DNA from: a virus
IMG/VR virus record: IMGVR_UViG_3300025655_000026
Coordinates: 1 to 64,000 of that record
DNA length: 64,000 nucleotides
Strand: one strand, 5' to 3'
The position numbers were made by a program, and so were the translations under genes. Below, in pieces: positions 1,674 through 26,499 of the stretch. Numbering within the stretch: position 1 is the stretch's first letter; each line of letters starts with the position of its first letter. Under the pieces are notes generated by a model. That model was not told the DNA's origin and searched no databases. It was given only the letters and a program-made list of their open reading frames with translations.

Positions 1674-2186
1674 TTGGCTGAAATATTTACTGCTAACGAC
1701 ATTTCTTTTAAGGAAATGAGTGAAGATGAAGCAGTAAAGACTTTTCAAAAAGATGGCTATTTTGATTATGTAAAAAGAGTCGTTAGATACAAAGCACTTC
1801 CTAATGAATCTGTTTGGGCGAGAAACCCCGCTACTATGTTTGTGGCTTTTAACAAAGAAACTCCTGTCGGAGTTATTGGGTTTTCAACTTATGGAAAATA
1901 TCTATTAGGTGCAGGAATTCATGTGCGAAAAGAATACCGTAATAGGGGTTTAACTCCTATTCTTATCAATGAAATGCTAAAACATAAAGGTGGCAAAAAA
2001 ATCCTCGTAAGTATAGCCAATAAAAATATTGTCAATTCTTATAGGAATGCAGGTTTTAAAGATATGGAGATTGGAAATCTACCTACTGAGATTAGAGAAG
2101 GAGCAGTTATTTCAAGAGAGGCTGGTTCGGAATTAGTTGAAAAATTTATGCTTCATGAAACAGGTTGGTTTGAAATTTTGAGGTGA
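1674..2186 (+). CDS. GNAT-family acetyltransferase
   Basis: Motif A-like GIHVRKEYRNRGL, later N...YRNAGF; GGTGA RBS; C-terminal WFEILR. Confidence 0.75.
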   Translation: MAEIFTANDISFKEMSEDEAVKTFQKDGYFDYVKRVVRYKALPNESVWARNPATMFVAFNKETPVGVIGFSTYGKYLLGAGIHVRKEYRNRGLTPILINEMLKHKGGKKILVSIANKNIVNSYRNAGFKDMEIGNLPTEIREGAVISREAGSELVEKFMLHETGWFEILR

Positions 2187-3610
2187 TTGTATTGAATATA
2201 AACAATCTCAATTTTGAACACCAAATGGATATGAATATGTCTAGGAATTCATTTCCATATTTCTTTGAGCATGTTCTTGGTTTCCAAATGACAAAACATC
2301 AAGCCGAATGGAAAGGCTTGATGGATGATACAAAGAGAACAGTTATTATGTGTAGTCGTGGTCATGGAAAATCTGTTTTTATGAGAGCATGGGTTGTTTG
2401 GAATCTATGTTTTCAAGAACCTCCATATCAAATGGTCTATATGTCTTCTAACCAAAAGCAGACAAATATGCACATGAAATCTATTTCAAAAATGTTTAGT
2501 CATCCTATCCTTGAGAAATTTAAGCCCGAAGGAAACAAAGGTTGGGCTGTTGAAGAAATGAATTTGGCCAATGGTAATTCTATTGTTGCTCGTTCAGTCA
2601 ATTCTCAGTTTCGTGGTCTTCATCCTCAAGAAGTTATTATTGACGACCCTTTGAAAGAGTTTAGCGTAAGCGGTATTCAAAAAGTCACAGATTGGTTTTT
2701 TGGTGACTTGACTCCTGCTATTCATTCTTCTGCTAAAGTTCGTATTATCGGAACGCCTTTCAGTTACACAGATATTTACCAACAACTCTCGGAAAATTCA
2801 GTTTATACGATGAGAGTTTACCCCTGTTTGAATTCTCTTAATGAACCACTTTGGCCTGAACGCTGGAACTACGAATCTTTAATGGAACGAAAAGAAGAAA
2901 TGGGTTCACTTCTATTTACTAGAGAATATATGTGTGTTCCTATTTCTACTGGAACTTCTCTTTTCAATCCCGAATTTTTAGAAAGTGCAAAGAACAAAGA
3001 TTTAGTTCTAAAACCAATCCGTAGAGAAGGCCACAAATACTTTGTTGGTATTGACCCTGCTATTTCTACTGATGGAGATTACAATGTCATTACTGTTCTT
3101 GAAATGGATGAGAATGAAAATAAATCTATTGTGTATATTGACCGAGCAAAGAATGTTGAGTTTAGAGAAAACATACAGAAGGTTAAAATTGTTAATAAAC
3201 TGTTTAATCCCGAAGCAGTATTTTTTGAAAGTAACGGGTTCGCTAAATCGTTCATTCAAGAGATTAGAAACACGGCTGATATTCGGCTACATGATTTCAC
3301 TACAACTCGTAGAAAGAAACAGGAGATTATTCTTAATTTACAAATGACTTTAGAGAACGGCAAAATGAATTTCCCTTATGGAAATGAAGAAAGTCGTAAG
3401 GTTACTGGAGAATTGATTAGTGAATTATCTATGTTTGCCATTAATGAAAATGGCAAATTTGAAGGTATTGGCGCACACGATGACATGGTTATGAGTTTGG
3501 CTTTGGCTAATGCCGCAACTTTCCAATCTACTGATAACTTTATTTTATTAGACGATATGGGAATATTTGACGACACTCCACGCTCTCCTATAATGGGGCT
3601 AAATTTCTAA
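2183..3610 (+). CDS. terL: Terminase large subunit
   Basis: Walker A SRGHGKS, Walker B IIDD, coupling motif GTP, LWPERW, RNase H-like GIDPA...DY and HDDMVMS. Confidence 0.95.
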   Translation: MIVLNINNLNFEHQMDMNMSRNSFPYFFEHVLGFQMTKHQAEWKGLMDDTKRTVIMCSRGHGKSVFMRAWVVWNLCFQEPPYQMVYMSSNQKQTNMHMKSISKMFSHPILEKFKPEGNKGWAVEEMNLANGNSIVARSVNSQFRGLHPQEVIIDDPLKEFSVSGIQKVTDWFFGDLTPAIHSSAKVRIIGTPFSYTDIYQQLSENSVYTMRVYPCLNSLNEPLWPERWNYESLMERKEEMGSLLFTREYMCVPISTGTSLFNPEFLESAKNKDLVLKPIRREGHKYFVGIDPAISTDGDYNVITVLEMDENENKSIVYIDRAKNVEFRENIQKVKIVNKLFNPEAVFFESNGFAKSFIQEIRNTADIRLHDFTTTRRKKQEIILNLQMTLENGKMNFPYGNEESRKVTGELISELSMFAINENGKFEGIGAHDDMVMSLALANAATFQSTDNFILLDDMGIFDDTPRSPIMGLNF

Positions 3611-6536: not shown

Positions 6537-8195
6537 TTGACTATGGCCGAAGAAAACCGCAGATTCTCCATAACGAATCTATTTAGGAGAAAAACCCCTA
6601 CTCCTGCTGATAGACAAATTTACAGCATGGGAATTCAAGAGAGGCAAAACAATAACATAATGACTGCGCCAATTATTTATTCAATTGTTCAGCAATCAGT
6701 TATTGTAAGAACTTGTATTACTCAACTTAAGCAGGAAGTATTTCGTAGAGGCTATCTTTGGGAAAAGGCATACGAAGCCCGTTGTAGAGACTGCGGGAAA
6801 GAACATCAACGGCCTGTTCAAGAATGCGCCCGTTGTGAATCAACTCAATTAGATAAGCCCGACCCAAAGCAATTAGAATACGCTGAGAAGTTTATGGATG
6901 GCTATGTGAATAAAGCCGAACAATTGTTTATTGATGTGCTACAAGAACTTGAAGATGATTTAAACATCATGGATGATGCATACATTGTTCTCGTCAAAGA
7001 ATATTTTATTGATGGCAATGGTCAAATTAGAATGCACCGAATCAAAGAAGTGTTTAGAGGCGACCCCGTTACTATGATGATTTATTGTGATGATGAAGGC
7101 ATTCGTGGAACAAAGGGATTTACTTGTGTGAATCACCGTCAATTTATTTCTACTGAACCCCATGAAGTTTGTGAGATTTGTAATGGAAATCTTTTCCCTA
7201 TTCATTATGTAAATCGTGTCGGTGGCCAAGACCAATATTTCTTAGAAGGAGAAGTTCTTCATTTTAGCAAATATAATCCTAGTCGTCTTTACGGTCTTTC
7301 TCCAATTCTAACTCTCTATAATCTTGTCATGACTCTTATTGCTATGGAGAACTATGTCAATTCATCTTACACAAAGAGTAGAATGCCGAGAGGACTACTC
7401 GCAGTCCAAACTAGAAACATGGACTCAATGAGGAACTTTTGGAGAGCAACAAAAGAAAAGATGGAAGCCGACCCTCATTTTATTCCTGTTATGGGAATTG
7501 AAGCCGAGAATGGAAAGGGTGCGGTTGAATGGATTAAGTTCATGGATAGCCTCAAAGAAATGGATTATGTTTCTGTAAAGGATGATTTGCGAGATAGAAT
7601 TTCAGCATTCTATGGAGTAAGTAAAGTGTTTATGGCTGATAATACTACAAGCGGTGGATTGAATAATGAAGGTATGCAAATCCTAGTAACCAATAGAGCC
7701 GTTCAAAAAGCACAAACTGTTTACAACAATTATGTTTTCCCGTTCCTCATTAGGCAATTTGGAATTACTGATTGGAATTTGAAACTCCCACCAAGCGAAG
7801 AAGAAGATGAAATTGCCATACTTCGTAAGCGTGAAATTGAAGTTAATATTGCCGCATCAATTAAGAATCTTGGTTTTGAAATTGAAATGGATGAAGATGG
7901 TAACTTTACTTATAGTAAGCCCGAACCAAAAGAAGAGAAGCCTCCAATGGGTGAAGAAGGAAACAATGCAGAACTTGACCCTCTTGCTGGCTCTAATTTA
8001 GACCAAAGGGATTTAGATGAAATGCAAAGGAATTTTGCACAAGGCGGAGAACAACAATCAAAGCCACAAGAGAACCCGCCAGCCACAAGGAATAAAAGGA
8101 GAATGAGCGTAGGCCCAGATAAGAGATTAACTGGTTTACCCAAAGAAGCAGGAAACCAAAATGTAGATTCAAGAAGCGAAAGGAGAGTTGGATGA
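6537..8195 (+). CDS. Portal protein with zinc-ribbon insertions
   Basis: EVLHF, YGLSPI, MPRGLL, ISAFYGV portal motifs; lies between terminase and protease; CxxC pairs. Confidence 0.9.
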   Translation: MTMAEENRRFSITNLFRRKTPTPADRQIYSMGIQERQNNNIMTAPIIYSIVQQSVIVRTCITQLKQEVFRRGYLWEKAYEARCRDCGKEHQRPVQECARCESTQLDKPDPKQLEYAEKFMDGYVNKAEQLFIDVLQELEDDLNIMDDAYIVLVKEYFIDGNGQIRMHRIKEVFRGDPVTMMIYCDDEGIRGTKGFTCVNHRQFISTEPHEVCEICNGNLFPIHYVNRVGGQDQYFLEGEVLHFSKYNPSRLYGLSPILTLYNLVMTLIAMENYVNSSYTKSRMPRGLLAVQTRNMDSMRNFWRATKEKMEADPHFIPVMGIEAENGKGAVEWIKFMDSLKEMDYVSVKDDLRDRISAFYGVSKVFMADNTTSGGLNNEGMQILVTNRAVQKAQTVYNNYVFPFLIRQFGITDWNLKLPPSEEEDEIAILRKREIEVNIAASIKNLGFEIEMDEDGNFTYSKPEPKEEKPPMGEEGNNAELDPLAGSNLDQRDLDEMQRNFAQGGEQQSKPQENPPATRNKRRMSVGPDKRLTGLPKEAGNQNVDSRSERRVG

Positions 8196-11083: not shown

Positions 11084-11318
11084 AATGCCTGAAAGAGTAA
11101 CTAAAGAAGAAAGAATGATTAGTCTAGCCATTGAAAAGGCTCGCCTAGCAAAAGAAATGCTACAAGAGGAATCTATTCATGAAAGACTTCCTGTTGAAGA
11201 TGATAGCCAAGAAGTGAAAATCACAAAGCCAAAGAATCTACGAGCAGAAAAAATTCAAAATCAAACTGCTAAAGATGAAGGCTACGGATTGGCTGGAGAA
11301 GTTACAGACAATTCGTGA
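11076..11318 (+). CDS. Hypothetical protein
   Basis: 80-aa ORF with GGAG RBS, overlapping both neighbours. Confidence 0.55.
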   Translation: MSKMPERVTKEERMISLAIEKARLAKEMLQEESIHERLPVEDDSQEVKITKPKNLRAEKIQNQTAKDEGYGLAGEVTDNS

Positions 11319-13831
11319 TTTCCATGAAACTCTCTAGCATTGAGAAAGATAAGCAACCTTCGGTTGAAATTCTTCGCCTATTTGAAAAGGTTAGAGTCGC
11401 CTATCTTTCTGCTAATGAAGACCCAAAAGAATATGGTAATCGCTGGAGAAGCGCAGTTAAGTTAATAGAAGAATCATATAATGAATATGATTCTGCTGGA
11501 AAAGAAATGAAAAACTTCGTTGAAGAAAAAGACTTAGAGGATAAGGAAGTAAATAATCCTCAAAGCCAAACTGCTAGAAGAGTATATCAAGGAATAAAGC
11601 AACTAAGATATGCTTCGGAATTAGTAGATGACCCATTTGCTAGAAGATTTAAAGAAAATGTATTAGAAGAACTCTTAGGAAATCCCGAAAGCATGATTAA
11701 ATTCGTTCACTATGCTTTGAGAAGTGATTCTAAATCTTTGCCTAAAGAAGTATGGGCGATAAAAGATATGGGAGAAGACACTTTAACTGATGGACTACAA
11801 GGGCTTGATTTGCAGGAAGAAGATATTGCTCTTTACATCATTGAGCATTATGGTGACGGTAAAGATTCAAAGAAAGTAGAAAAAGAAGTTAAACAGGCTT
11901 TAGATATGTTGGAACTTCTTTATTTCTCAAGATATGATAAAGAAGATTATTCAGCATTAAAAGATATTGAAAAGGCTGAAAAATCAGAAAGTGATTTTAT
12001 AATTCCAAATAAACCAATGTATCGCATTTTTGATATTGATGATATTAATGAACTTAAAGGCTTTAGTGGTAATTGGGTCGTTCAAGAAAAATACGATGGT
12101 ATGAGAGTTCAACTCCATAAGATTGATAATAACATCAAAGTCTTTTCTTACAATGAAAAAGATATTACTGATAAGTGTGAAGATATTGTGAAAGAACTTC
12201 GTGCAAAGAAGTTCGGAGATTGTATTCTTGATGCTGAACTTATTTTATTTGATGGAGATGAAGCCCTACATAGAGCAGATACTATTGCTCATGTTTTCAA
12301 AAATAAATATCCCGATGCTAAACTAAGATGTTCAGTATTTGATATTCTAAGACACGAAGAACAGAATCTAGCAGATGAAGAACTAGAAAAGAGAATTACT
12401 ATTTTGTTCAATAATTATTCGGGTGACTCTACTGATGCTTTGGCTTTCCCATCTAAGAAAGATACTAGAATGGCTGACAACTTAAAAGATATTGAAGAGT
12501 ATGCTAAAGAGATTATGGAAATGCCTACGGCAGAAGGAGTTGTCATTAAAGATGCAACCTCTACTTATTATATCGGCACAAAGAAAAATCCAAAGTGGAT
12601 TAAGTGGAAGAAGTTTGTAGACCTAGATTTGATTGTCCTTGATAAAAAGGAAACAAAATCCAATTTATTCTCTTATAGTCTAGGGGCAGGGCCAGTAAAT
12701 GAGGAAAATAAGTTCACTAAAGAAATTGATGGAATCCTATACTTAGATGTGGGTAAGGCACTCAATACTTCAATTGAAGTTGATGTAGGTGACATTGTAA
12801 GAGTTAAGGTAGATGAAGTAAAACCTAGTGAGGATAGATTTACTGTTTATTCAGCAAAGGTCATTGAAGTTCCCGAAGTAGAATATCCCGATAAGATTGT
12901 TACTTTGGAAATGTTGGCTCAAGATACAAAGAAGTCGCTTAACTATAATGTAGAAGCACTTGAAAAAGGAATTAGAATTACTGACCATATTCACGGAGAG
13001 GCCACCATTATTATGAAAGGTGAATTAGATGGTTTTACTATCTATGGCTTTGAACAAAATAATCTAATGTCTAAAAATGCAATTGCTGATTTGAATGTTT
13101 GGAAAGAGGCGGCAGTTGAAATCATGAAAACTAAAAATAGTGAGATGTTTAATGCTATATTCCAATTCCTTAAAGAAAATGGTGAAAAAGATTTAGCAGA
13201 CATTGATGAATTCTTAAAGAAACAAATTCCTTCTTTATACGAAGATACTGTTGGCTCGGATAAAAAAGAACTTGTAAAGTGGCTTAAAGTTAGAAAAGAT
13301 GATGGGATTCAATTTGTAAATAAAAAATTCCAAGCCGACCCAACAAAAATTCTTTCGGAAGATGAAGATGAATTGAATGGTGAAATTCTAAAACAATACA
13401 AAACTCCCGAAGAATATAGAAAAGGCAACTTTAAGATTTATGACCGTGAAGATGGTAACTTGAATGTTGTTATGTCTTTAGGCGATGAAAAAATCAATTG
13501 GTTTATTGATATTGAAGATAGTGTAGATATTTTTGATTTGTTTGGAAAAGCAGGTAAGTTTCCAGCGAGAGTTGCAGATACTATACAAAGAGATAAGGTC
13601 ATTGATTCGGGAGAAGTGGAATTAGGTATTCAAAGAAATGGCTATCATGAATATTTCTTAGAAGGAAATAAATTCCAAACTAAGTTTCATGTTAGATACC
13701 TTCCCGTTAAAGATAAGAAAATGTGGTTAGCATGGACTGGATATAAGCAAAAACCTGCCAAAATAGAAGGGGATGAGGGTTTATGGAATATAAGAGAAGA
13801 TAAATATGCAAATGCCGAAATACCAAAATAA
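11315..13831 (+). CDS. lig: Multidomain ATP-dependent DNA ligase in the head module
   Basis: Motif I QEKYDGMR, ILDAEL, VFDIL, EGVVIK, WIKWKK, OB domain; extra N- and C-terminal domains. Confidence 0.85.
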   Translation: MISMKLSSIEKDKQPSVEILRLFEKVRVAYLSANEDPKEYGNRWRSAVKLIEESYNEYDSAGKEMKNFVEEKDLEDKEVNNPQSQTARRVYQGIKQLRYASELVDDPFARRFKENVLEELLGNPESMIKFVHYALRSDSKSLPKEVWAIKDMGEDTLTDGLQGLDLQEEDIALYIIEHYGDGKDSKKVEKEVKQALDMLELLYFSRYDKEDYSALKDIEKAEKSESDFIIPNKPMYRIFDIDDINELKGFSGNWVVQEKYDGMRVQLHKIDNNIKVFSYNEKDITDKCEDIVKELRAKKFGDCILDAELILFDGDEALHRADTIAHVFKNKYPDAKLRCSVFDILRHEEQNLADEELEKRITILFNNYSGDSTDALAFPSKKDTRMADNLKDIEEYAKEIMEMPTAEGVVIKDATSTYYIGTKKNPKWIKWKKFVDLDLIVLDKKETKSNLFSYSLGAGPVNEENKFTKEIDGILYLDVGKALNTSIEVDVGDIVRVKVDEVKPSEDRFTVYSAKVIEVPEVEYPDKIVTLEMLAQDTKKSLNYNVEALEKGIRITDHIHGEATIIMKGELDGFTIYGFEQNNLMSKNAIADLNVWKEAAVEIMKTKNSEMFNAIFQFLKENGEKDLADIDEFLKKQIPSLYEDTVGSDKKELVKWLKVRKDDGIQFVNKKFQADPTKILSEDEDELNGEILKQYKTPEEYRKGNFKIYDREDGNLNVVMSLGDEKINWFIDIEDSVDIFDLFGKAGKFPARVADTIQRDKVIDSGEVELGIQRNGYHEYFLEGNKFQTKFHVRYLPVKDKKMWLAWTGYKQKPAKIEGDEGLWNIREDKYANAEIPK

Positions 13832-13868: not shown

Positions 13869-15032
13869 ATGAAAGCCATGACGCTTATGCTAAAGGCTGA
13901 GAGAAATGATGAATTTCAAATCCTGAAAAGCGATGAACTAATGATTGGAGGATATGCGAGTATTGAAATCGTAGACAAACAAAACGATTTGATTACACTA
14001 AAAGCACTTAACGAAGCAGTTCAAAAATTTATGGAGAAAGATAGATTTAGAAATGTAATGACAAATCACTCAAATGTTCAAGTTGGAGAAGTAGTAAAAT
14101 CATACAGAGATAAAACGGGGAGGATATGGAAAACAGAAGTAGACGATGTGGGCTTCTTTGTTGTAATTAAACTCCGTGATGATATTGAAAAAGCAAAAGA
14201 AATAAATAGAGGTATTCGCAAAGGGTCGTTAAGGTCGTTTAGCATAGGAGGACAAGCGTTACAGAAGGTGAAAAAATCTCATCCCGAATTAGGTGAATAT
14301 AACGAGATTAGTAAACTAGAATTACACGAAGTAACTATATGCGAAAAAGGAATTAACCCCGAAGCGAAGTTTGACATATTAAAACAAGAAAAAGGAAGTG
14401 AAACAATGAGCAAAATGGAAAAAGCATTGGCAGAACTAGACGCACTTATGGCAGAGGTAAACACTTTGCGTAAGGAAGAAATGAACGAAGAAATGGAAAG
14501 CATGGCTATGCCCGAAGAAGAGGAAGAGTCTATGGGATATTCCGATGAGGAAGCAAAGTCTCTTGTTCCAACAGAAGACGGTGCTGGAGTTGAAATCGGT
14601 GAGCCAGCAGACCGTGTTGTGATTGACAACGGAAACCCAACAGGTAGCGATATGCCAGTTGTTAAGGCTTTTAACAACGATGAAGTTTCAACTCTTAACC
14701 TTACAAATGGAAACATTGAGAAGGCTTACGAGGCTTTCCGAGCAGAACAACTTGAGAAGTTGGCTTTCTCACAATTGCAGAAGTCTTTTGAGGCTCGCTT
14801 TGAAAAAGAACTTTCAAGCCGAGAAGATATGCTCGCAAAGCAAAACTATGATGCGGCAACTGAAATTGCTTCTCTTAAAGAAGAATTTAGTGAACTCCGC
14901 AAATCTTTGACTGCTGAAAAAGATGCCATTGTAAAGGCTCAAGAAGCAGTTCGTGCAAACATTCCATCAATGGATGACATTGCCTCAATGGATTGGGCTG
15001 ATGTTCACCGCTTGGTTGGAGGAAATTATTGA
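13869..15032 (+). CDS. Prohead protease fused to a scaffold domain
   Basis: IGGYAS, DKQND, catalytic His (TNH), FSIGG, LHEVT..GINPEA (HK97-type protease); acidic coiled-coil C-terminal half. Confidence 0.9.
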   Translation: MKAMTLMLKAERNDEFQILKSDELMIGGYASIEIVDKQNDLITLKALNEAVQKFMEKDRFRNVMTNHSNVQVGEVVKSYRDKTGRIWKTEVDDVGFFVVIKLRDDIEKAKEINRGIRKGSLRSFSIGGQALQKVKKSHPELGEYNEISKLELHEVTICEKGINPEAKFDILKQEKGSETMSKMEKALAELDALMAEVNTLRKEEMNEEMESMAMPEEEEESMGYSDEEAKSLVPTEDGAGVEIGEPADRVVIDNGNPTGSDMPVVKAFNNDEVSTLNLTNGNIEKAYEAFRAEQLEKLAFSQLQKSFEARFEKELSSREDMLAKQNYDAATEIASLKEEFSELRKSLTAEKDAIVKAQEAVRANIPSMDDIASMDWADVHRLVGGNY

Positions 15033-15041
15033 GGTGATATT

Positions 15042-16343
15042 ATGGGATACATTAACACAATTGCAGATTTAGAAGCACAAAGTTACGGACTGAACATGGC
15101 AGGATATGCTGGAAACGATTTGTTGAAAGCGGCTGGCGGACTAAGTGGGCTACATACTCCCCACGATGGAGCGCAAACCGCACCAACAGGTTATTTGGCT
15201 AACCTTTACAATCAAGTTTATGGCCAAAAAGTTTGGTCAATGTTGAACCGAGAATGCAACGCACTTTCAGTTATCTCAAAGCGACCATACACTTCAAGCG
15301 GTTGGAGAGTTCTAAGTGAGCGACCTGCTGGTGGTTCAAGCGCACAACTTTCAGTTGGAACATCGGGTGCTATTGGTGCTTCCGCAACTTCGGCTGATTT
15401 GATTGGTGGTGTGCCAGAAAATCAAAGCATTGGTAGCGGTGGTCTTCAAGCCATTGCACCAACATATGCTCAACTATACCTTTCTCCAAAGACTGTTGCT
15501 CATCAATTTGAGTTCAGCGAAATTGCTTTGGAAATGGCAAAAATTGATGATGGTATTGGTGACATTAGAGCGCAAATGAGAGAAGACATGGGTAAGCATC
15601 ACGCTGAAATGCAAAACAAGATGTTGGTTATGCCTTTGGAATTCTACGGTGAACCTACCGCTTTGTCTACTCTAGAAGATAACTACACTTCACTTTACAA
15701 AGTTGTTACTTCCACCGCAGAAATTGACATTGCTGATACAGACAACCTTTACTCCGAAGCACAAGGCGATTTGATTAACAACATTTACGGCTCAAACAGA
15801 ACAAGTGCTTCTTTCCTTGATGCTACTGTTGATTACGGTGACGGATATGTTGCGGCAGATGTGCGAAGTCTTACACTTACTCGTCTTAACGCAATGATTC
15901 GTGATTTGAGAATTGAAGGCGGTTCACCAAAGGTTATTTTGACTGGTTACGATACTATTCAAGCATTGGCTGACCTTCTTCAAGCACAAGAGCGATTTAT
16001 GGATAGAAAAGAAATTGTTCCAACTGTGAACGGTGTTCGTGGTGTAAAGGGTCAAGAAGTTGGATTCCGTGTTTCAACTTACTACGATATTCCTTTGATT
16101 CCAGTCAAAGACATGGCTTCAACCACACATTCATCTGTTACTGGTATTTCCGATATGTTGTTCCTTGATACTGACCATTTGTGGCTTTCAGTCATGAAGC
16201 CAACTCAATATCTTGAGGATGGTATTACCAACGGAAACCCATTCGGTGTTGGTCGTCTAGGTAATACTGGACTTTACCGAACCATTGGTGAAGTCGGTTG
16301 TTCATTCTTTAAGGGTCAAGGCAAGATTACGAACCTTCAATGA
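15042..16343 (+). CDS. Major capsid protein (HK97 fold)
   Basis: 433 aa directly after the protease; GAGGTGA RBS; PKTVAHQFEFS, YYDIPLIP, MLFLD patterns. Confidence 0.9.
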   Translation: MGYINTIADLEAQSYGLNMAGYAGNDLLKAAGGLSGLHTPHDGAQTAPTGYLANLYNQVYGQKVWSMLNRECNALSVISKRPYTSSGWRVLSERPAGGSSAQLSVGTSGAIGASATSADLIGGVPENQSIGSGGLQAIAPTYAQLYLSPKTVAHQFEFSEIALEMAKIDDGIGDIRAQMREDMGKHHAEMQNKMLVMPLEFYGEPTALSTLEDNYTSLYKVVTSTAEIDIADTDNLYSEAQGDLINNIYGSNRTSASFLDATVDYGDGYVAADVRSLTLTRLNAMIRDLRIEGGSPKVILTGYDTIQALADLLQAQERFMDRKEIVPTVNGVRGVKGQEVGFRVSTYYDIPLIPVKDMASTTHSSVTGISDMLFLDTDHLWLSVMKPTQYLEDGITNGNPFGVGRLGNTGLYRTIGEVGCSFFKGQGKITNLQ

Positions 16344-17345: not shown

Positions 17346-17750
17346 ATGGCGGCATTGAATCACGATACTAGACTAGTTATGACTATTCTTTTTGTTGGAA
17401 CACTTAGCGGAGCGAATGTATTCTTTTATGCTCAATACGGAACAGGATTTCCTTATGGGCCGATGACGCATTCTGTTCTCTTTGGGCTAGGAACAATTGG
17501 TTCTATTATGGTCATGAAAGCCGTCTTTGATTTGGCTCTCAATGATAAAATTGAACTATGGCTTCTTGATAGAAAGATTTCAGCATATTGGGCTAGAAAG
17601 GCTAGAGATGCTGAACAGCGAACTAAATTAGTAGAAAGCGCAAAGCAATACTCTAACAACTTCGGTTCTTCTCCATTCCAACAACCTCAAATGCTAAGTC
17701 AAGAAGATTCCAATTCAGTTGGAAATGAATTTTTGATTGGGCTACAATGA
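17346..17750 (+). CDS. Two-TM membrane protein
   Basis: Hydrophobic segments LVMTILFVGTLSGANVFFY and VLFGLGTIGSIMVM; polar C-terminal tail. Confidence 0.7.
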   Translation: MAALNHDTRLVMTILFVGTLSGANVFFYAQYGTGFPYGPMTHSVLFGLGTIGSIMVMKAVFDLALNDKIELWLLDRKISAYWARKARDAEQRTKLVESAKQYSNNFGSSPFQQPQMLSQEDSNSVGNEFLIGLQ

Positions 17751-17759
17751 GGGTTATGA

Positions 17760-17975
17760 ATGCTAGGCGACATACTAGGTATGACCGATACTGACTTCAT
17801 GTATAACCAAAGCAGAGCGCATTCTGCTGACATTTTCTTTTTGAAAATGAGAGCATGGTTTTGGGGCAGTTGTGCTACATTGTCGGCTTTATTGATTGGT
17901 AACATCATGGGAGTATTTGATTTAAATATCATGGGTTGGTTGATTGAGTCTGTAAAGTCCTTTTGGGGGCATTAG
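17760..17975 (+). CDS. Small membrane protein
   Basis: AWFWGSCATLSALLIGNIMGVF TM segment plus an amphipathic C-terminal helix. Confidence 0.7.
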   Translation: MLGDILGMTDTDFMYNQSRAHSADIFFLKMRAWFWGSCATLSALLIGNIMGVFDLNIMGWLIESVKSFWGH

Positions 17976-17976
17976 G

Positions 17977-18639
17977 GTGTCGCTACTAACAGGCTTTGCC
18001 GTTGTAATAACAGAAGCGGTCTTCTCTGTTTACAAAAAACTACACGCAATTAACTTCGGAGTCTATGGGGCGACAATGGTTGGCAAAACTACTTTGGCTC
18101 ATCAACTTACTACGAGAGGAGAAGTTCAACAAATAAACGAAAGAACGGTTGGGCTACATAGAGCATCAAGAAAGTCAATAAAAATTGATGGCCAAACAAA
18201 TACCATTAAGAGTGCTGATTTAGGAGGAGAAGCAATCTATTGGAAAGAATGGGTTAAAGATATGCAATTAAGAAAGCCAAAATATATTATTTTCATGATA
18301 GACCATAGGCACTTAGATAATTCTTCAAATCTTGACCATCAAGTAGCATGGAAGTTTCTTGTAGATACTGTTTGCTCATCAATGTGGCCTACTGGAAAGA
18401 AAAAGAAAGAAGAAGACTATCCTTTAGCCATAGGTATTTGGGCTAATAAATATGATATTTGGGGAAAGAAATATGATAACGATGAGCCTATTGAAAAACA
18501 TGAAATATTTGAACCGTTTAAGTATGGAATGAGGAAGTTGAACGAGAAGGGAATACCCTGTTTCAAATATATTGTTTCAGCAAAATCTGACCCCGAAATG
18601 GTGTATAGAGGAATTATTACAATGATAAAGGATTACTGA
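17977..18639 (+). CDS. Ras-superfamily small GTPase, Arf/Sar1-like
   Basis: G1 GATMVGKTT, G2 ERTVG, G3 DLGGE, G4 ANKYD, G5 SAK; hydrophobic N-terminal helix. Confidence 0.85.
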   Translation: MSLLTGFAVVITEAVFSVYKKLHAINFGVYGATMVGKTTLAHQLTTRGEVQQINERTVGLHRASRKSIKIDGQTNTIKSADLGGEAIYWKEWVKDMQLRKPKYIIFMIDHRHLDNSSNLDHQVAWKFLVDTVCSSMWPTGKKKKEEDYPLAIGIWANKYDIWGKKYDNDEPIEKHEIFEPFKYGMRKLNEKGIPCFKYIVSAKSDPEMVYRGIITMIKDY

Positions 18640-18644
18640 TTATT

Positions 18645-19172
18645 ATGTGGAAAGATATTCTTAAGGCTCTTGAAAGAATTGCTTTGAGTGATAAGGATAA
18701 AATAAAAATAGAAAAAGTTCCACAAGAAGTTTCATTCAAACCCAATGGACTATGGTATTCATTTAGTTTAGGAAGTGGCTGGATGAGAGGAAATATGTTA
18801 GATTATGGCTGGTTAGAATCATATCAATATATGTTATACTTAGATACTTCCGAATTAAACATTTTACAAATTAAAAACTTAGAAGATGCTAATGCTTTTT
18901 ATAGCAGATGGAATCGTGGAAAACGCAGAAACCAATGGGATAGTGTTGCTTTTTACTATGATGGAGTAGAATTATTAAACTATAATAATTGGGTTGAAAA
19001 ATATGGTAGCGATAATCCTGTTATGGAAGAATTTGGTGGATGGGATATGGATTCGGGATGTATTTGGAATACTCAAAATTTAAAAGTTAAAAAAGTCAAA
19101 CCTATTGAAGAACGCCACTACAAAAGACAACATAAAGAACAATTGAGTTTATATGATGATATAGAGGAGTGA
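18645..19172 (+). CDS. Hypothetical protein, possible ADP-ribosyltransferase-like fold (starts MWKDILK)
   Basis: KPNGLWYS...YDGVEL...WDMDSGCIWN; fold assignment tentative. Confidence 0.5.
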   Translation: MWKDILKALERIALSDKDKIKIEKVPQEVSFKPNGLWYSFSLGSGWMRGNMLDYGWLESYQYMLYLDTSELNILQIKNLEDANAFYSRWNRGKRRNQWDSVAFYYDGVELLNYNNWVEKYGSDNPVMEEFGGWDMDSGCIWNTQNLKVKKVKPIEERHYKRQHKEQLSLYDDIEE

Positions 19173-19176
19173 TTAA

Positions 19177-19887
19177 ATGTATCAACAACCAAACATTATA
19201 GGAATGCAACAACAACCAATGGGTTTTCAAAATCCACAAGGGGCAAATGTAATGAATGCTTTTTTACCAAAATTACCTAGAGCGAGAAGTGCAGGTATTA
19301 TTGAAGAGTATATTTACGATGAGCAAAAGCCAAAGAAAAAACTTAAGGAAATTAAAAAAGTTCTTCTTCCCGAAAAGAAAAAGTTTCTTTTCTTTAAATA
19401 TGGTAAAAAGTTTAATTTAAAAGACAGATGTATTGTTTGCGGAACTCAACATTTTTGGGAGGCTGGAGATACATTAAGACCGCCTATTCCATTAACAGAA
19501 GTTACAAAAGGTAGACCGATGAAAGGAACATATTGTCCTAAACACGCTAGCACATTTATGCAAATGGAAATGCTTGAACAACAAATACTTGCAGAAGAAA
19601 ATGGGTTAGAATTTACTGCGTTTAAACCTAAAATGCCAAAGGTTCTAAAAAGTGGCCCAATCAATAACCTTAACAAAGCAGATGTTATGGCTCTAACTGC
19701 GACAGGATGGATAATCAAGCCACCGAGCATTTCTACAACGGAGTCGGCCACACAAGAAGCGCATAGAATCGTTAATGAAATTAATATTTTAACAGAACAA
19801 TTAAACTACTTGATGATACACAAAGGAGTTGAGGCAAATGGGAGTAAGCACGAATACATTGAATTCAGCAATGACGGCACAGAATGA
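19177..19887 (+). CDS. Zn-binding hypothetical protein with a Q/P-rich N-terminus
   Basis: CIVCGTQH and YCPKH ligands; C-terminal coiled coil. Confidence 0.6.
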   Translation: MYQQPNIIGMQQQPMGFQNPQGANVMNAFLPKLPRARSAGIIEEYIYDEQKPKKKLKEIKKVLLPEKKKFLFFKYGKKFNLKDRCIVCGTQHFWEAGDTLRPPIPLTEVTKGRPMKGTYCPKHASTFMQMEMLEQQILAEENGLEFTAFKPKMPKVLKSGPINNLNKADVMALTATGWIIKPPSISTTESATQEAHRIVNEINILTEQLNYLMIHKGVEANGSKHEYIEFSNDGTE

Positions 19888-20479
19888 TGCGACATTTAAG
19901 ACGGTGAATAACCTCTTGTCGCTTCAAGATAATCATGTTGAAGAATTTCTTCAATATCATGGTGAATCGTTTTTGGGCGCATTAGAAAAAATGATGGAAG
20001 ATGTTACTGAAAGAGTAGTTTCACAAATGTTAGCAAAACTAGCATTTATTCAAGACGGTGGAAACATAAAGGTTAATGCTGATTCTTTAAGAGAATATGA
20101 AAGAATTACTCAAGAGAATATTGATTTGGATATTCAAAAGATTCTAAGTGCGGCATTAAATGCAGAAATTATTAATCAACGAAAGATGGCTAAATCTCAA
20201 TACCTTGAATCACAAGGCTTTGGTAATCCAGCAGGAATGCAGGGAGTTCAAGTTGCTCAAGGTGCATATGGTCAAAGCCAACAAATGTATGCTCAAGGAT
20301 TTAATGCTACTCAAAACGGAAGTGGCTATCCAGTTCCACCAGCAGGACAAGATGGATATGGAAGACCATATTGGATTGACCCACAAACAGGACAAATGAG
20401 TTATGAGCCTCCTAAGAGTGGTTTGGGATTAATGAATGTTGCACAAAAAGGGGCGGCTTGGGCTAAGTGGTTAATGTGA
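19829..20479 (+). CDS. Helical protein with a Q/G-rich linker and C-terminal amphipathic helix
   Basis: Likely start ATG 19838 after GAGG; ends LMNVAQKGAAWAKWLM. Confidence 0.6.
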   Translation: MRQMGVSTNTLNSAMTAQNDATFKTVNNLLSLQDNHVEEFLQYHGESFLGALEKMMEDVTERVVSQMLAKLAFIQDGGNIKVNADSLREYERITQENIDLDIQKILSAALNAEIINQRKMAKSQYLESQGFGNPAGMQGVQVAQGAYGQSQQMYAQGFNATQNGSGYPVPPAGQDGYGRPYWIDPQTGQMSYEPPKSGLGLMNVAQKGAAWAKWLM

Positions 20480-20489
20480 GGAGATTTGA

Positions 20490-22445
20490 ATGGCAGTTCA
20501 AATCTTTTGGAATAATCGTAAAATAGATATGAGCGATGCAAAGGCTCTTTTAAAAGCCGAAATGTTGGGCTATATTATGGGAACAGAAGAATCTAGAACA
20601 TTCATACCAAATCTTAATGAAGCCGAAAGAAAGTTTGATGATAGTGATTATGAAAATTATCCCGAAGAAGATATGGAAAAAATGTATATAGAATTTGAAA
20701 AAATGCTAAACGAAATTCTTGAAATGTCACTAGATGATGTAATCAGTCAATTACCACAAAAAAAATATGGTAATTTGGCAGAAAGAGTTCAAGAACGAAA
20801 AGAACAAATTGAAAATAAAAAACTTAAAGATTTATTAGAAGGCAACACTATTAATATGATTAGTGGTGCTGGCGCATATGAATTGGGTAGAAAACTAGAA
20901 GGACTACCAATGATAGATTTCTTTGAAGAAATTAAAGGACAGACTGTTGAATTAGATTTTGTTTTTAAACAAAGAATAAAAGATGATAAGTCTTCTTTTA
21001 TAATAACAACAACAAACCCTAAAAATGAAGAAATACACAATATTACAATTGGCTTTTCTGACCATTCTACCGTTAGAGATGTTAAAGAAAAAGCCTTAGA
21101 AAAATATGGTATTTACAATGCAGGTTTTACAGAAGCGAGAAAAAAAGACCCGTATGTTGTATCTAAAGGAAAGGAAACAATAAAATTTAATCTTGACTTG
21201 GCTGAAATTTTAAAAGATGGTAAACTTCTACCTAAAGGAACATTAGTAGAATTAACTCCTGAATTAGACGAAAATGGCGACCACGCATTTATAGAAATTG
21301 ATAAAGATGGTAAAAAAATAAAAAAACTATTGTATAAAGAAATTGGCAAAAGAACTCTTAAAACTAAAGAGTATGAAGAAATATTAGAACGAATCAAAAC
21401 ACAAAAAATAGATGAAGATATTATTTCAATAGATGATAAGCCATATCGTTTAATATTCAACGAACAAAGCCGTTCAACTAACATTACTGATTGGATTGAA
21501 GAAGATGTTAATAAATTCATAACAGATAACATGGAAAAATTTCAATCAGCCTTAAAACCTTATTTAGATGACCCGTTAATTGTGGCAACTGGAAAAGTTA
21601 ATTTAGATATTAAGACTAGTATTACTAAAGTTAGCGGAGGAAAAGAAGTAATAGAAGATATAGATTATGAAACTTACACACTAATGGAGGAAGAAGATTT
21701 ACTTCCCATTGTAGAAGAAGACATTGGGTATTTAAAAGAAGACATTACTATTTATGAAGAAAATCTTAAATTGCTCAATAAAACACAAAAGAATATTGTA
21801 AATAAAAATAAACCTATGAGAGATAGAGTAATGGAATATAAATCAAATATAAATGAGTTAAAGGAACAAAGAGAGAATCTAAGAGAAAGGATTGCTTCTC
21901 AGCAAAAAACATCTAATTCAGCAAAAAAAATAGGATTTTCGGATGAAGAAACATTAAGAAGATATGACAAACTTATTGAAGAATTTTCCGAAGTAAAAGA
22001 ACTTACTAAAATACTTAATTACATAGTAAGAGAAAGAGAAGAAATAAAAAATAAATTAGAAAAAACTAAATCGCTATTGTCTTCTCTTGAGAAATACCTC
22101 AAAGATAGAAATATTAGTGCTTTACAATTAATGTATAGGGAAGAAAAAGATAAAAAGAAACAGCCCTACGAAAAATATACTACTCAAGAAAAATATATTT
22201 CAAGAAATCCCTTTCAAGAACTTTCAAGTTTTTTGACTTTTATTGCAGAAGTAAAAACAAAAGGTTTGCCAATTTATTACGAAGTTATTGTTGATAGTAT
22301 AGGAAAAATTGACATAAATCCATCTAAGTATTCTAGAACAGGCCAAAAAGGAAGAATGAAAAGGTCATATGATAGCGAAATTGCCGATGGACTTAGAAAC
22401 ATGGTAAACAAAATTAATCGTTTAAAGAATGAAATTGGGGGATGA
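20490..22445 (+). CDS. Large E/K-rich hypothetical protein with a coiled-coil region
   Basis: 651 aa, GAGGAG RBS. Confidence 0.6.
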   Translation: MAVQIFWNNRKIDMSDAKALLKAEMLGYIMGTEESRTFIPNLNEAERKFDDSDYENYPEEDMEKMYIEFEKMLNEILEMSLDDVISQLPQKKYGNLAERVQERKEQIENKKLKDLLEGNTINMISGAGAYELGRKLEGLPMIDFFEEIKGQTVELDFVFKQRIKDDKSSFIITTTNPKNEEIHNITIGFSDHSTVRDVKEKALEKYGIYNAGFTEARKKDPYVVSKGKETIKFNLDLAEILKDGKLLPKGTLVELTPELDENGDHAFIEIDKDGKKIKKLLYKEIGKRTLKTKEYEEILERIKTQKIDEDIISIDDKPYRLIFNEQSRSTNITDWIEEDVNKFITDNMEKFQSALKPYLDDPLIVATGKVNLDIKTSITKVSGGKEVIEDIDYETYTLMEEEDLLPIVEEDIGYLKEDITIYEENLKLLNKTQKNIVNKNKPMRDRVMEYKSNINELKEQRENLRERIASQQKTSNSAKKIGFSDEETLRRYDKLIEEFSEVKELTKILNYIVREREEIKNKLEKTKSLLSSLEKYLKDRNISALQLMYREEKDKKKQPYEKYTTQEKYISRNPFQELSSFLTFIAEVKTKGLPIYYEVIVDSIGKIDINPSKYSRTGQKGRMKRSYDSEIADGLRNMVNKINRLKNEIGG

Positions 22446-24540: not shown

Positions 24541-26499
24541 ATGACGACTGATTGTGGAGATATATTTTTAGGAAGCGGGGCGAGTATAACATTTGTTCCC
24601 GAAAATGACATTTACTTTCCTTCTACTAATGGCGGAAGTGCTTTTGACGGAGTAACTTCTCTTACCGAAATTACAGCCGCCTCTTCATTTAGCAATGTTT
24701 TTTCTCTTGTAAATAATTTGTATGTTGGTTGTATTATTGAGCGATATGGAGTTGGCTCAAATACATATACTGATGAAGTTACAACTGTTACTTTCAATAG
24801 CGATACTAAGACTGACTATTCGGCTGACTATTTAGTATTCACTATTCTCCCTAGTGATGGTGGGGCGGCTTCAACACACGCATTTTGGTTTGATGATACA
24901 GGTGCAATTTCCGAACCTTCTCATGGTGCTGATGCAAGTAGTTCAGTAGATATTTCCAATGCTGGTGTAATTACAAAAGAAGAATTTGCCGCACTTTTTA
25001 CTACTGCCGTAAATGCGGTTTCAAATATTTCTGCTACGAGAAGTGGTAATGTAGTTACTGTTACTAATACTTATGGTGGAAATAATTCTGCCGCTACAAC
25101 CACAAGCGATTCAACCAATTTATCTCTAGTAAGAACAGTCGCAGGAAACGAATCAGCAACTCCTGCTTCTTTCCAAGATTGCGCTAGAATTACTTCAAAT
25201 ACTGATACTACGATTACTTTTAGTCCTGCACTTACTCCTGCTTCGGGAGATTACTTCGTTATTACTCAATATGGCGCACCTGTTCCTGCACCAACTGATA
25301 CTGCAAAAAGACTTCTTTCCGATGAATGGCTTGGTTTGGTAGAAAGCATTACTTTCCCAACAACAGAAGTTGAAATGAAACAGGTTAATCTTGCTCTTGG
25401 AGGTTCTAGAAATTGGACTTATCAATATAAAGGAATTGAAACCGCTAGCGGTGGAAGTATTAATTTAGTTTCTAATCATGCCGCTTGGCTCTATTATTTC
25501 TTTGGCCGATGCACAGGAGTTAGCGCAACTACTTCTGTTGAAGCAACTACTGACAACTTTACTGCCGCTTCTTCGGGCGCAACTTACATTGATTATGGTT
25601 CAGTTACAGAAACAGGGCCAATCTTCTATCGTTCTGTCGGAGATAAACTTTGTCCTCCAATTGCTAAACACTTAGATAATTACGCTAATATGGATAAATT
25701 AACTCTTCCGATTATTGCTAGTGGAGAAATTGATAATGAAATCACCTATACTTTTGCAGAACAAAACGGAGAACTTCTCCCATCTTTCTCTCTTGAACAA
25801 GTATTCAGCAAATTACCTTCAAGTGATACTTATAGAACTACGACTACTACTTACGAAGATACAAATTTCGTAACGATTGCTAGAGGTAATAGAGTTAATA
25901 CTATGACAATTACTGCTAATGAAAATGAAGAAATTAAAATGACTATGGATTTGTCTACTCGCACAATCCATAATCTTGAAAGCGATGAAGTATATGATGC
26001 TAGAAGAGGAGTTACTGATGAAACTGCTTTCTTTAATTATGATTCCGAATCTAAATTTAGAGAACCTTTCTTTTTCTCAAGTGGCTACTTGAAAGTATTT
26101 GGTGTTCAATTCCTAAAGATTAATTCAATTACTTTAACTATGAATAATTCTCTAACAGAAAGAAGATTTATTGGCGTTGGAAATAAATCAATTCAAGAAG
26201 CAATTCCAGCACAACGAACTTATGAACTACAATTTACAGGTCATGTGACTGATGATAGACTTTATCAAGAATTATTGAATCAAGATGAGAATACTTCGGA
26301 AACGGATGGCCAAATGGTTGAACTTAACTTTTCTAAAGCAAATGGTGAATCATTTACATTAAAGTTTAAAGATTACATGGTTTCTGCTAATAATTTCCCA
26401 TTACCCGATGATAAAGGGCCAGTTGTCGTAGAAACAACAATTATGCCAAGAAACTTAGAAAGTTGCTCAGTAACAACCCATTGGATTTTACAGGGGTGA
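24541..26499 (+). CDS. Major tail tube protein with inserted accessory domains
   Basis: LPSFSLEQ, RVNTMTITA, ITLTMNNSL, RTYELQF tube-like strands; precedes the chaperone and tape measure genes. Confidence 0.75.
   Translation: MTTDCGDIFLGSGASITFVPENDIYFPSTNGGSAFDGVTSLTEITAASSFSNVFSLVNNLYVGCIIERYGVGSNTYTDEVTTVTFNSDTKTDYSADYLVFTILPSDGGAASTHAFWFDDTGAISEPSHGADASSSVDISNAGVITKEEFAALFTTAVNAVSNISATRSGNVVTVTNTYGGNNSAATTTSDSTNLSLVRTVAGNESATPASFQDCARITSNTDTTITFSPALTPASGDYFVITQYGAPVPAPTDTAKRLLSDEWLGLVESITFPTTEVEMKQVNLALGGSRNWTYQYKGIETASGGSINLVSNHAAWLYYFFGRCTGVSATTSVEATTDNFTAASSGATYIDYGSVTETGPIFYRSVGDKLCPPIAKHLDNYANMDKLTLPIIASGEIDNEITYTFAEQNGELLPSFSLEQVFSKLPSSDTYRTTTTTYEDTNFVTIARGNRVNTMTITANENEEIKMTMDLSTRTIHNLESDEVYDARRGVTDETAFFNYDSESKFREPFFFSSGYLKVFGVQFLKINSITLTMNNSLTERRFIGVGNKSIQEAIPAQRTYELQFTGHVTDDRLYQELLNQDENTSETDGQMVELNFSKANGESFTLKFKDYMVSANNFPLPDDKGPVVVETTIMPRNLESCSVTTHWILQG

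Follow-up and report, generated by a model that had tools for sequence, protein, structure and literature searches.

What is an Arf/Sar1-like small GTPase doing in a tailed virus of marine archaea, amid genes for membrane proteins? The question is raised by the window analysed here, the first 64,000 nucleotides of the IMG/VR record IMGVR_UViG_3300025655_000026 (77.5 kb, estimated 83% complete), which comes from a magrovirus, a tailed virus of Poseidoniales (Marine Group II archaea). At positions 17346–20479 it carries a run of genes that a first, sequence-only reading had taken for a five-gene, GTP-gated lysis or budding module of a virus whose host lacks peptidoglycan. We find that five of these genes form a virus-specific cassette that is core to magroviruses and keeps its gene order in three of their lineages; lineage 1 denotes the window's own lineage, and lineages 2 and 3 two further magrovirus lineages. 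By analogy with known systems, we tentatively suggest that the cassette may act late in infection as a GTP-gated switch on the host membrane that controls the release of virions. In the magrovirus literature that we searched, the GTPase is unmentioned and the five-gene block undescribed; the automatic annotation of some copies reads 'GTPase SAR1 family protein' (JGI).

A divergent Arf-like small GTPase

The GTPase gene (17977–18639, + strand, GTG start) is an open reading frame of 220 codons, recognizable by its G motifs. The sequence-only reading had listed all five of these, with RTVG, DLGG, a Trp in switch II and a Glu at the catalytic position, and each of them can be read in the protein: GATMVGKT(T) at residues 31–39 (G1), RTVG at 56–59 (G2), DLGG at 81–84 (G3), NKYD at 157–160 (G4) and SAK at 201–203 (G5). 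Glu85 follows directly after DLGG, at the position of Gln61 in Ras and Gln71 in Arf, and switch II holds Trp89 and Trp92. All five motifs in this order, Glu85 and both Trp residues are invariant in 26 relatives. Across 32 sequences drawn from the three lineages and distant relatives, G1, G3 and G4 remain invariant, whereas the residue after DxGG is Glu in lineage 1, Gln in lineage 2, His in lineage 3, and Thr or Ala in relatives. The nucleotide-binding motifs are thus conserved and the catalytic residue is not, and the Glu is a lineage trait. A His after DxGG, as in lineage 3, is also found in Sar1 and SR-beta.

The first 33 residues are conserved as protein (G6, F7, A8, E13, H23, A24 and I25 are invariant), which supports the GTG start over the internal Met34 used by some gene callers. 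Residues 1–19 are hydrophobic (mean Eisenberg hydrophobicity 0.63), and in the AlphaFold2 model the N-terminal helix spans residues 3–22. The hydrophobic N-terminal helix of the earlier reading is therefore present, but in lineage 1 it appears uniformly hydrophobic rather than amphipathic: its hydrophobic moment is 0.25, against 0.31–0.46 for its counterparts in the other two lineages and 0.58 for that of a cellular Arf-like relative. From its composition, the lineage-1 helix looks more like a membrane anchor than like a classical amphipathic helix. SR-beta, too, has an N-terminal transmembrane (TM) anchor.

By motif order and predicted fold, the protein is a Ras-superfamily small GTPase (P-loop, TRAFAC). 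Taken alone, it stays under every GTPase threshold of Pfam and NCBIfam. Its Pfam matches were all sub-threshold (Roc, 22.4 bits against a cut-off of 27; MMR_HSR1, 20.2 against 21.9; SRPRB, 14.3); Pfam Arf (PF00025) gave no match at E of 0.1 or below for the window GTPase and its gathering score was not reached; NCBIfam returned only a sub-threshold small_GTP match; and a sequence profile search of the PDB gave marginal Ras matches only (E 0.17). The AlphaFold2 model has a mean predicted local distance difference test score (pLDDT) of 65 and a predicted template modelling score of 0.64, with switch regions below a pLDDT of 50. Foldseek searches of the PDB with this model put Ras proteins on top (E 4e-7). 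VIA-align, over about 150 aligned residues, returned Arf6 (Z 10.2), G-alpha (10.1), SR-beta (9.8) and Sar1 (9.2), and a Lokiarchaeal Rag-like protein was also among the top matches, all tied within 1 Z unit; 47 chains had Z of at least 8, and those listed were all G domains. A further fold comparison gave Z 10.2–10.3 for Arf1 and Arl1. The Arf/Sar1 likeness of the earlier reading is borne out in this way, and extends to SR-beta.

Distant relatives place the family more narrowly. Of 1.84 billion representatives searched, a profile of the GTPase family matched only 78. Its most distant full-length matches pass PF00025 (P0169 with 57.2 bits, P0182, P0184, P0193, P0194 and P0195), and for SRPRB, P0193 passes (26.2 bits) and P0190 falls just under the cut-off (24.7 against 25 bits). 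hhalign joined the viral GTPase group to the PF00025-passing prokaryotic group at 99.8% (E 1.5e-29). We conclude that the viral GTPase branched off from prokaryotic Arf-like GTPases and has diverged very far from them, formal membership of the Arf family being unproven. One PF00025-type relative lies in a cellular-looking context, beside an IS1-like gene and a TPR protein and without the cassette. Looked for in IMG/VR, the queries P0131, P0138, P0169 and P0218 gave no match, and a word-indexed search with P0169 returned only the query itself.

With the Arf family, the viral protein shares the G-domain fold, a hydrophobic N-terminal helix before the G domain and a G3 of the form DxGG. Arf1 also has a Trp 11 residues after the G3 Asp, a feature matched by the viral GTPase. 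It departs from the family in the apparently uniform hydrophobicity of its N-terminal helix, in the Glu that replaces the catalytic Gln, in motifs of its own (IIFMIDHRHL and NLDHQxAWKF) and in being encoded by a tailed virus, within a fixed cassette that includes membrane proteins. The feature that defines Arf proteins is a nucleotide-dependent interswitch toggle that frees the N-terminal helix (bioRxiv 10.1101/2024.02.28.582541).

A five-gene cassette core to magroviruses

The GTPase gene is the third of five core genes, which encode a protein with two TM segments (2-TM), a protein with one TM segment (1-TM), the GTPase, a protein with a Cys/His core and a Gln-rich protein. This order is unchanged in 25 long lineage-1 loci, and in 80 lineage-1 loci every core gene is present wherever the contig extends that far. 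Lineage 2 (127 IMG/VR contigs), with a GTPase about 32% identical to that of the window, has the same five genes in the same order, as does lineage 3; the GTPases of the three lineages share about 30% identity. In comparisons between lineages by hhalign, homology holds for three of the five genes, the GTPase (99.9%), the Cys/His protein (95%, E 3.8e-8) and the Gln-rich protein (73.5%, E 3e-5). Profile matches are weak for the 2-TM protein (E 0.009) and there is no significant match for the 1-TM protein, so that these two genes are conserved across lineages only in architecture and position. The synteny across relatives that the sequence-only reading had named as its check is thus found in three lineages.

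The five genes that it had grouped are co-conserved, so that its condition for refutation, genes that are not conserved together, does not hold. The further reading frame within the block, at 18645–19172 (+ strand, 175 codons; phrog_8582, of unknown function, E 8.7e-8), does not belong to the conserved set, being a variable insert that occurs in 5 of the 80 lineage-1 loci. Insertion hot spots lie on either side of the GTPase gene, with different inserts at other loci; four loci (L015, L031, L041 and L062) have inserts of 0.5–0.85 kb between the 1-TM gene and the GTPase gene, at the place of the window's 17975/17977 junction.

The cassette genes lie on the late strand, spaced 1–10 bases apart, and have more than 350 protein homologues at 70–90% identity. 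The ratio of non-synonymous to synonymous substitution rates (dN/dS) is 0.09–0.17 across the five core genes (0.11 for the 2-TM gene, 0.105 for the 1-TM gene, 0.09 for the GTPase and 0.17 for the Gln-rich protein), values that are approximate because dS is near saturation and that indicate purifying selection. Given these homologues and ratios, the block is not a product of chance. The GTPase has the highest local conservation, with a median identity of 77.9% against 67.1% for the capsid protein, a comparison biased by the choice of loci by GTPase similarity.

What surrounds the block differs among the lineages. In lineage 1 it lies 3′ of the genes for the capsid and decoration-like proteins; in lineage 2 it follows the gene for a 2203-residue protein about 7 kb upstream of the gene for the large terminase (TerL), and in lineage 3 it stands directly 3′ of the chaperonin gene. 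The block therefore behaves as a self-contained unit, and for the same reason we rejected a fixed place for it within the head module.

To gauge its distribution, we used magrovirus records sampled via their terminase, independently of the GTPase. The GTPase profile matched 19 of these 23 records, including all eight with a completeness of 90% or more; the four without a match are 28–65% complete. All 12 loci from this sample have two TM genes upstream of the GTPase gene, and in 10 of them a simple pattern found a TYCP-motif protein downstream. Outside magroviruses, tblastn with the GTPase gave no match in 50,697 phage records, in line with the earlier remark that such GTPases are unusual in tailed viruses, and the profile had no match in four other archaeal tailed viruses (HVTV-1, HCTV-1, vir335 and vir519). 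Among one genome for each of 185,579 prokaryote species, the only match was a viral-looking 12.2-kb contig in a bacterial metagenome-assembled genome. This contig (NZMJ01000024.1, 'MAG: Maricaulis sp.'), placed in an alphaproteobacterial bin, carries a GTPase 77% identical to that of the window and is almost certainly a mis-binned magrovirus fragment. We regard the cassette as virus-specific and core to magroviruses.

Cassette proteins and their surroundings

Hydropathy confirmed the two membrane proteins that had been proposed upstream of the GTPase. The first gene (17346–17750, + strand) encodes a protein of 134 residues with TM segments at 10–29 and 43–61, separated by a short uncharged loop of Gly, Pro and Tyr and followed by a basic, helical C-terminal tail. 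By the positive-inside rule, we infer an N-in/C-in topology, in which the basic tail, like the G domain, would be cytoplasmic. This protein is present in 78 of the 80 lineage-1 loci (median identity 68%), and lineages 2 and 3 have in the same position a 2-TM protein with a coiled-coil tail. The second gene (17760–17975, + strand) encodes 71 residues with a single TM segment at 44–62, and its stop codon ends one base ahead of the GTPase start. It is found in 79 of the 80 loci (median identity 69%); in the other lineages, a 1-TM protein of 72–99 residues is always encoded immediately 5′ of the GTPase gene. In build, both proteins resemble holins, with two TM helices and one, respectively, and a Lys/Arg-rich tail on the 134-residue protein. 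Together with the GTPase, they form the window's only cluster of proteins with hydrophobic segments; the other such segments are isolated, in a tape-measure-like gene, a 90-codon reading frame and the C terminus of the chaperonin. Lineages 2 and 3 encode more small membrane or signal-anchored proteins 3′ of the cassette (L119:12178-12435; L165:12295-13753; L164:12317-15606), among them, in L165, a pair of paralogues that each have a hydrophobic segment at the N terminus, so that the membrane gene cluster is larger there than in the window.

Downstream of the insert lie two genes for soluble proteins. The Cys/His protein (19177–19887, + strand, 236 residues) has a Gln-rich N terminus, a basic stretch, a core of the form CxxC...GTYCPxH and two long helices. 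Its core, C85-x2-C88 ... C120-P-x-H123, is presumed from the motif to be a zinc site: in the alignment C85, T118, Y119 and C120 are invariant and H123 almost so, and lineages 2 and 3 have Asp in place of C88. The protein has no match in Pfam, PHROG or NCBIfam, and a wide fold search gave helical-hairpin matches only (Z of 5 or less), with no fold match. We regard it as a candidate partner of the GTPase.

The last gene encodes a helical protein of about 213 residues with an 'ITQENID' core, which is also found in lineage 3, and a Gln/Gly-rich tail. It ends at 20479 (+ strand) and probably starts with the ATG at 19838 (213 residues) rather than the TTG at 19829 (216 residues). In lineage 1 its C terminus is invariant (GRPYWIDxxGQMSYEPP...AAWAKWLM). 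The stretch at 20340–20479 of the window reads as a degenerate WW-like motif, PPxGxDGYGRPYWIDxxGQMSYEPP followed by AAWAKWLM, that does not occur in lineages 2 and 3; the Pfam WW match is weak (E 0.047).

The remainder of the window is that of a tailed virus. On the + strand it encodes TerL (2183–3610), the portal (6537–8195), an ATP-dependent DNA ligase whose gene lies within the head module (11315–13831), the prohead protease (13869–15032), the capsid protein (15042–16343) and the tail tube protein (24541–26499); PolB and the chaperonin are encoded on the − strand. Among deposited phage records, the capsid protein matches solely the Haloarcula siphoviruses HVTV-1 and HCTV-1/5 and viruses of methanogen-related archaea, and one GTPase homologue, 77% identical, comes from the Poseidoniales virus YSH_150918. 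Magroviruses have been ranked third in abundance among marine virus groups, behind SAR11 phages and cyanophages (PMC5434244). Directly 3′ of the cassette, at 20490–22445, lies the gene for a Lys/Glu-rich coiled-coil protein of 651 residues that is poorly conserved, with a weak match in just 3 of 25 long relatives, while the genes on either side are conserved. One relative, at locus L252 (G018:C1:24368-25078), has an in-frame TGA where a conserved Trp is expected (...NIL, stop, KQ, as against ...NILWQ); a TGG-to-TGA variant or an error of sequencing is a more probable cause than recoding. In one 110,196-bp record (G014) the GTPase gene is split over both ends (109733–110188 and 3–230), which fits a complete genome that is circularly permuted or terminally redundant.

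Possible functions and known systems

What could such a cassette do? We infer a membrane-localized GTPase that switches with GTP, contacts its partners and takes part in egress. By its hydrophobic N-terminal helix, the GTPase would be held to the host membrane on the cytoplasmic side. Presumably expressed together with the late genes, the cassette would supply a nucleotide-dependent switch that times the oligomerization of the two membrane proteins, by which the host membrane would be permeabilized or remodelled; the Cys/His protein may serve as an effector of the GTPase or as a regulator resembling a GTPase-activating protein (GAP). The cassette would thereby do the timing job of a holin/antiholin pair and let virions out of a host without peptidoglycan. 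We favour this release switch, as a tentative choice, because of the topology of the proteins, their standing as the sole membrane-protein cluster, the lack of lysis families among the window proteins scanned and of Arv and Roadblock families in the records searched, the murein-less host, its uncharacterized viral egress and the precedent of ArvA. The unchanging gene order, the portability, the core status under purifying selection and the invariant G1, G3, G4 and G5 also count in its favour. Poseidoniales are reported to be without murein and pseudomurein gene clusters (PMC11706807), and a 2024 review of entry and egress describes the release of archaeal tailed viruses as completely uncharacterized (PMC10791045). 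Budding, the other mode of release in the sequence-only reading, was rejected as unlikely, because the virion is a naked tailed particle.

A bolder form of this proposal, which we consider rather unlikely, would make the cassette the egress machine of archaeal tailed viruses, with the anchored Arf-type GTPase responding either to the cell's GTP state or to a GAP-like zinc protein of the virus and then opening the membrane via the two TM proteins. If true, these viruses would run a lysis clock on a eukaryote-style small-GTPase switch, for which bacteriophages offer no counterpart. Magrovirus hosts are uncultured, and a universal, strongly conserved, membrane-linked GTPase cassette offers a concrete, expressible target for the question of egress. 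A virus of Euryarchaeota that encodes an Arf-type membrane switch along with dedicated partners would also bear on the origin and spread of small-GTPase membrane machineries beyond eukaryotes and Asgard archaea.

Several observations weigh against a release switch. The cassette proteins match no known holin, lysin, ArvB, ArvC or Roadblock family, and the holin-like traits of small size, TM helices and a charged tail are generic. A role in lysis or budding is suggested only by analogy, by the late-operon position and by the want of another candidate. Zinc binding by the Cys/His protein stays putative because its second Cys is not conserved beyond lineage 1, and its AlphaFold2 model is poor (pLDDT 56.6). 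The Gln-rich protein has a weak match to phrog_14074, a 'virion structural protein' (E 0.0011). No RNA runs were listed among the sequencing runs that carry the cassette sequence. All three genomic positions of the block are in or beside morphogenesis genes, which a structural or assembly role fits equally well.

That last point invites a different account, in which the cassette would be a membrane-anchored assembly platform that tethers head or virion assembly to the inner host membrane, where the two soluble partners, recruited by the GTPase, would make up a scaffold or condensate. It is comparable in spirit to the membrane-initiated prohead assembly of phage T4. The block's place in or beside head-morphogenesis genes in all three lineages speaks for it, as do the low-complexity Gln/Asn/Gly-rich regions of the partners and a GTPase more conserved than the capsid protein. 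However, HVTV-1 and HCTV-1, the nearest relatives in culture that share the capsid module, assemble without such a GTPase, no link ties the cassette proteins to portal, scaffold or capsid, and the position of the block relative to the head genes is not fixed; we consider a platform unlikely. Location in a late structural operon would also suit proteins that enter the next host with the DNA, as do the internal or pilot proteins of tailed phages (gp14–16 of T7 and gp7, gp16 and gp20 of P22): the TM proteins, the GTPase and the partners would be packaged and, in the recipient cell, make or control a channel across the envelope. TM segments are typical of ejection proteins, and the weak PHROG match of the Gln-rich protein points the same way. 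Such a role is nevertheless improbable, since the cassette moves between lineages independently of the head and tail genes, and no packaged small GTPase that relies on cytoplasmic GTP is known to us.

Portability as an autonomous unit agrees with a device for manipulating the host, in which the GTPase complex would alter envelope functions (vesiculation, transport, division or receptor display) and so block superinfection or redirect resources. Archaeal GTPases of the ArvA type do govern vesicle production, but takeover and exclusion functions are not usually co-transcribed with late structural genes, accessory exclusion genes are not typically a universal core, and the cassette matched no PADLOC defence model; we judge this decidedly improbable. 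A last possibility concerns the enzyme itself. Because a Glu stands in for the catalytic Gln, the GTPase might be a catalytically dead pseudo-enzyme that binds nucleotide and serves as a static scaffold only. Glu85 is invariant in lineage 1, and the position after DxGG is not conserved across lineages (E/Q/H/T/A). Against this, all nucleotide-binding motifs are invariant, including the guanine-specific NKxD, many relatives keep Gln or carry His, and Ras Q61E is reported to keep or even raise intrinsic hydrolysis, so that a dead enzyme appears highly improbable.

Returning to the release switch, three kinds of known system invite comparison. Like holins and antiholins, the cassette offers small, late membrane proteins with one or two TM segments and a charged cytoplasmic tail, in a genome with no other lysis candidate seen; unlike them, it has no sequence match to a holin family and no adjacent endolysin. 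The sequence-only reading had recognized neither a holin nor an endolysin, and we too found no holin or lysin family of Pfam or PHROG, and no canonical lysis cassette, in the cassette or among the approximately 30 window proteins that were scanned, which do not include every reading frame of the window. To our knowledge, no holin system is under the control of a small GTPase. The Sar1–Sec12–Sec23/24 (COPII) and SR-alpha/SR-beta systems offer a second analogy, in that a membrane-tethered Arf-type GTPase has a TM protein as its partner and a regulator that contains zinc. The viral partners, however, are not homologous to Sec12, to Sec23 or to the SRX domain, nor does a Roadblock/longin-type partner accompany them: as the earlier reading had noted for the window, no Roadblock/LC7 protein (PF03259; MglB-type) was matched at E of 0.1 or below in five magrovirus records, under a control that matched five known genomes.

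The nearest likeness is to the ArvA-ArvB-ArvC (OapABC) operon of Haloferax volcanii, in which the GTPase ArvA and the Zn-ribbon protein ArvC drive membrane vesiculation (PMC10927574). Searches for ArvB (OapB, PF09846) gave no match in the 77.5-kb record, with a control that matched Haloferax and Methanosarcina, and ArvC (OapC, PF09845) had no match at E of 0.1 or below in the window's record and four other magrovirus records (three of them 100% complete). The Arv operon also differs from the viral cassette in being without its two integral membrane proteins and its Gln-rich protein. Both would combine, in one operon, a zinc-type Cys protein and a small GTPase whose N-terminal helix interacts with the membrane (PMC10927574). 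Acting as it does on a euryarchaeal cytoplasmic membrane, the Arv operon is the closest functional precedent for the viral cassette.

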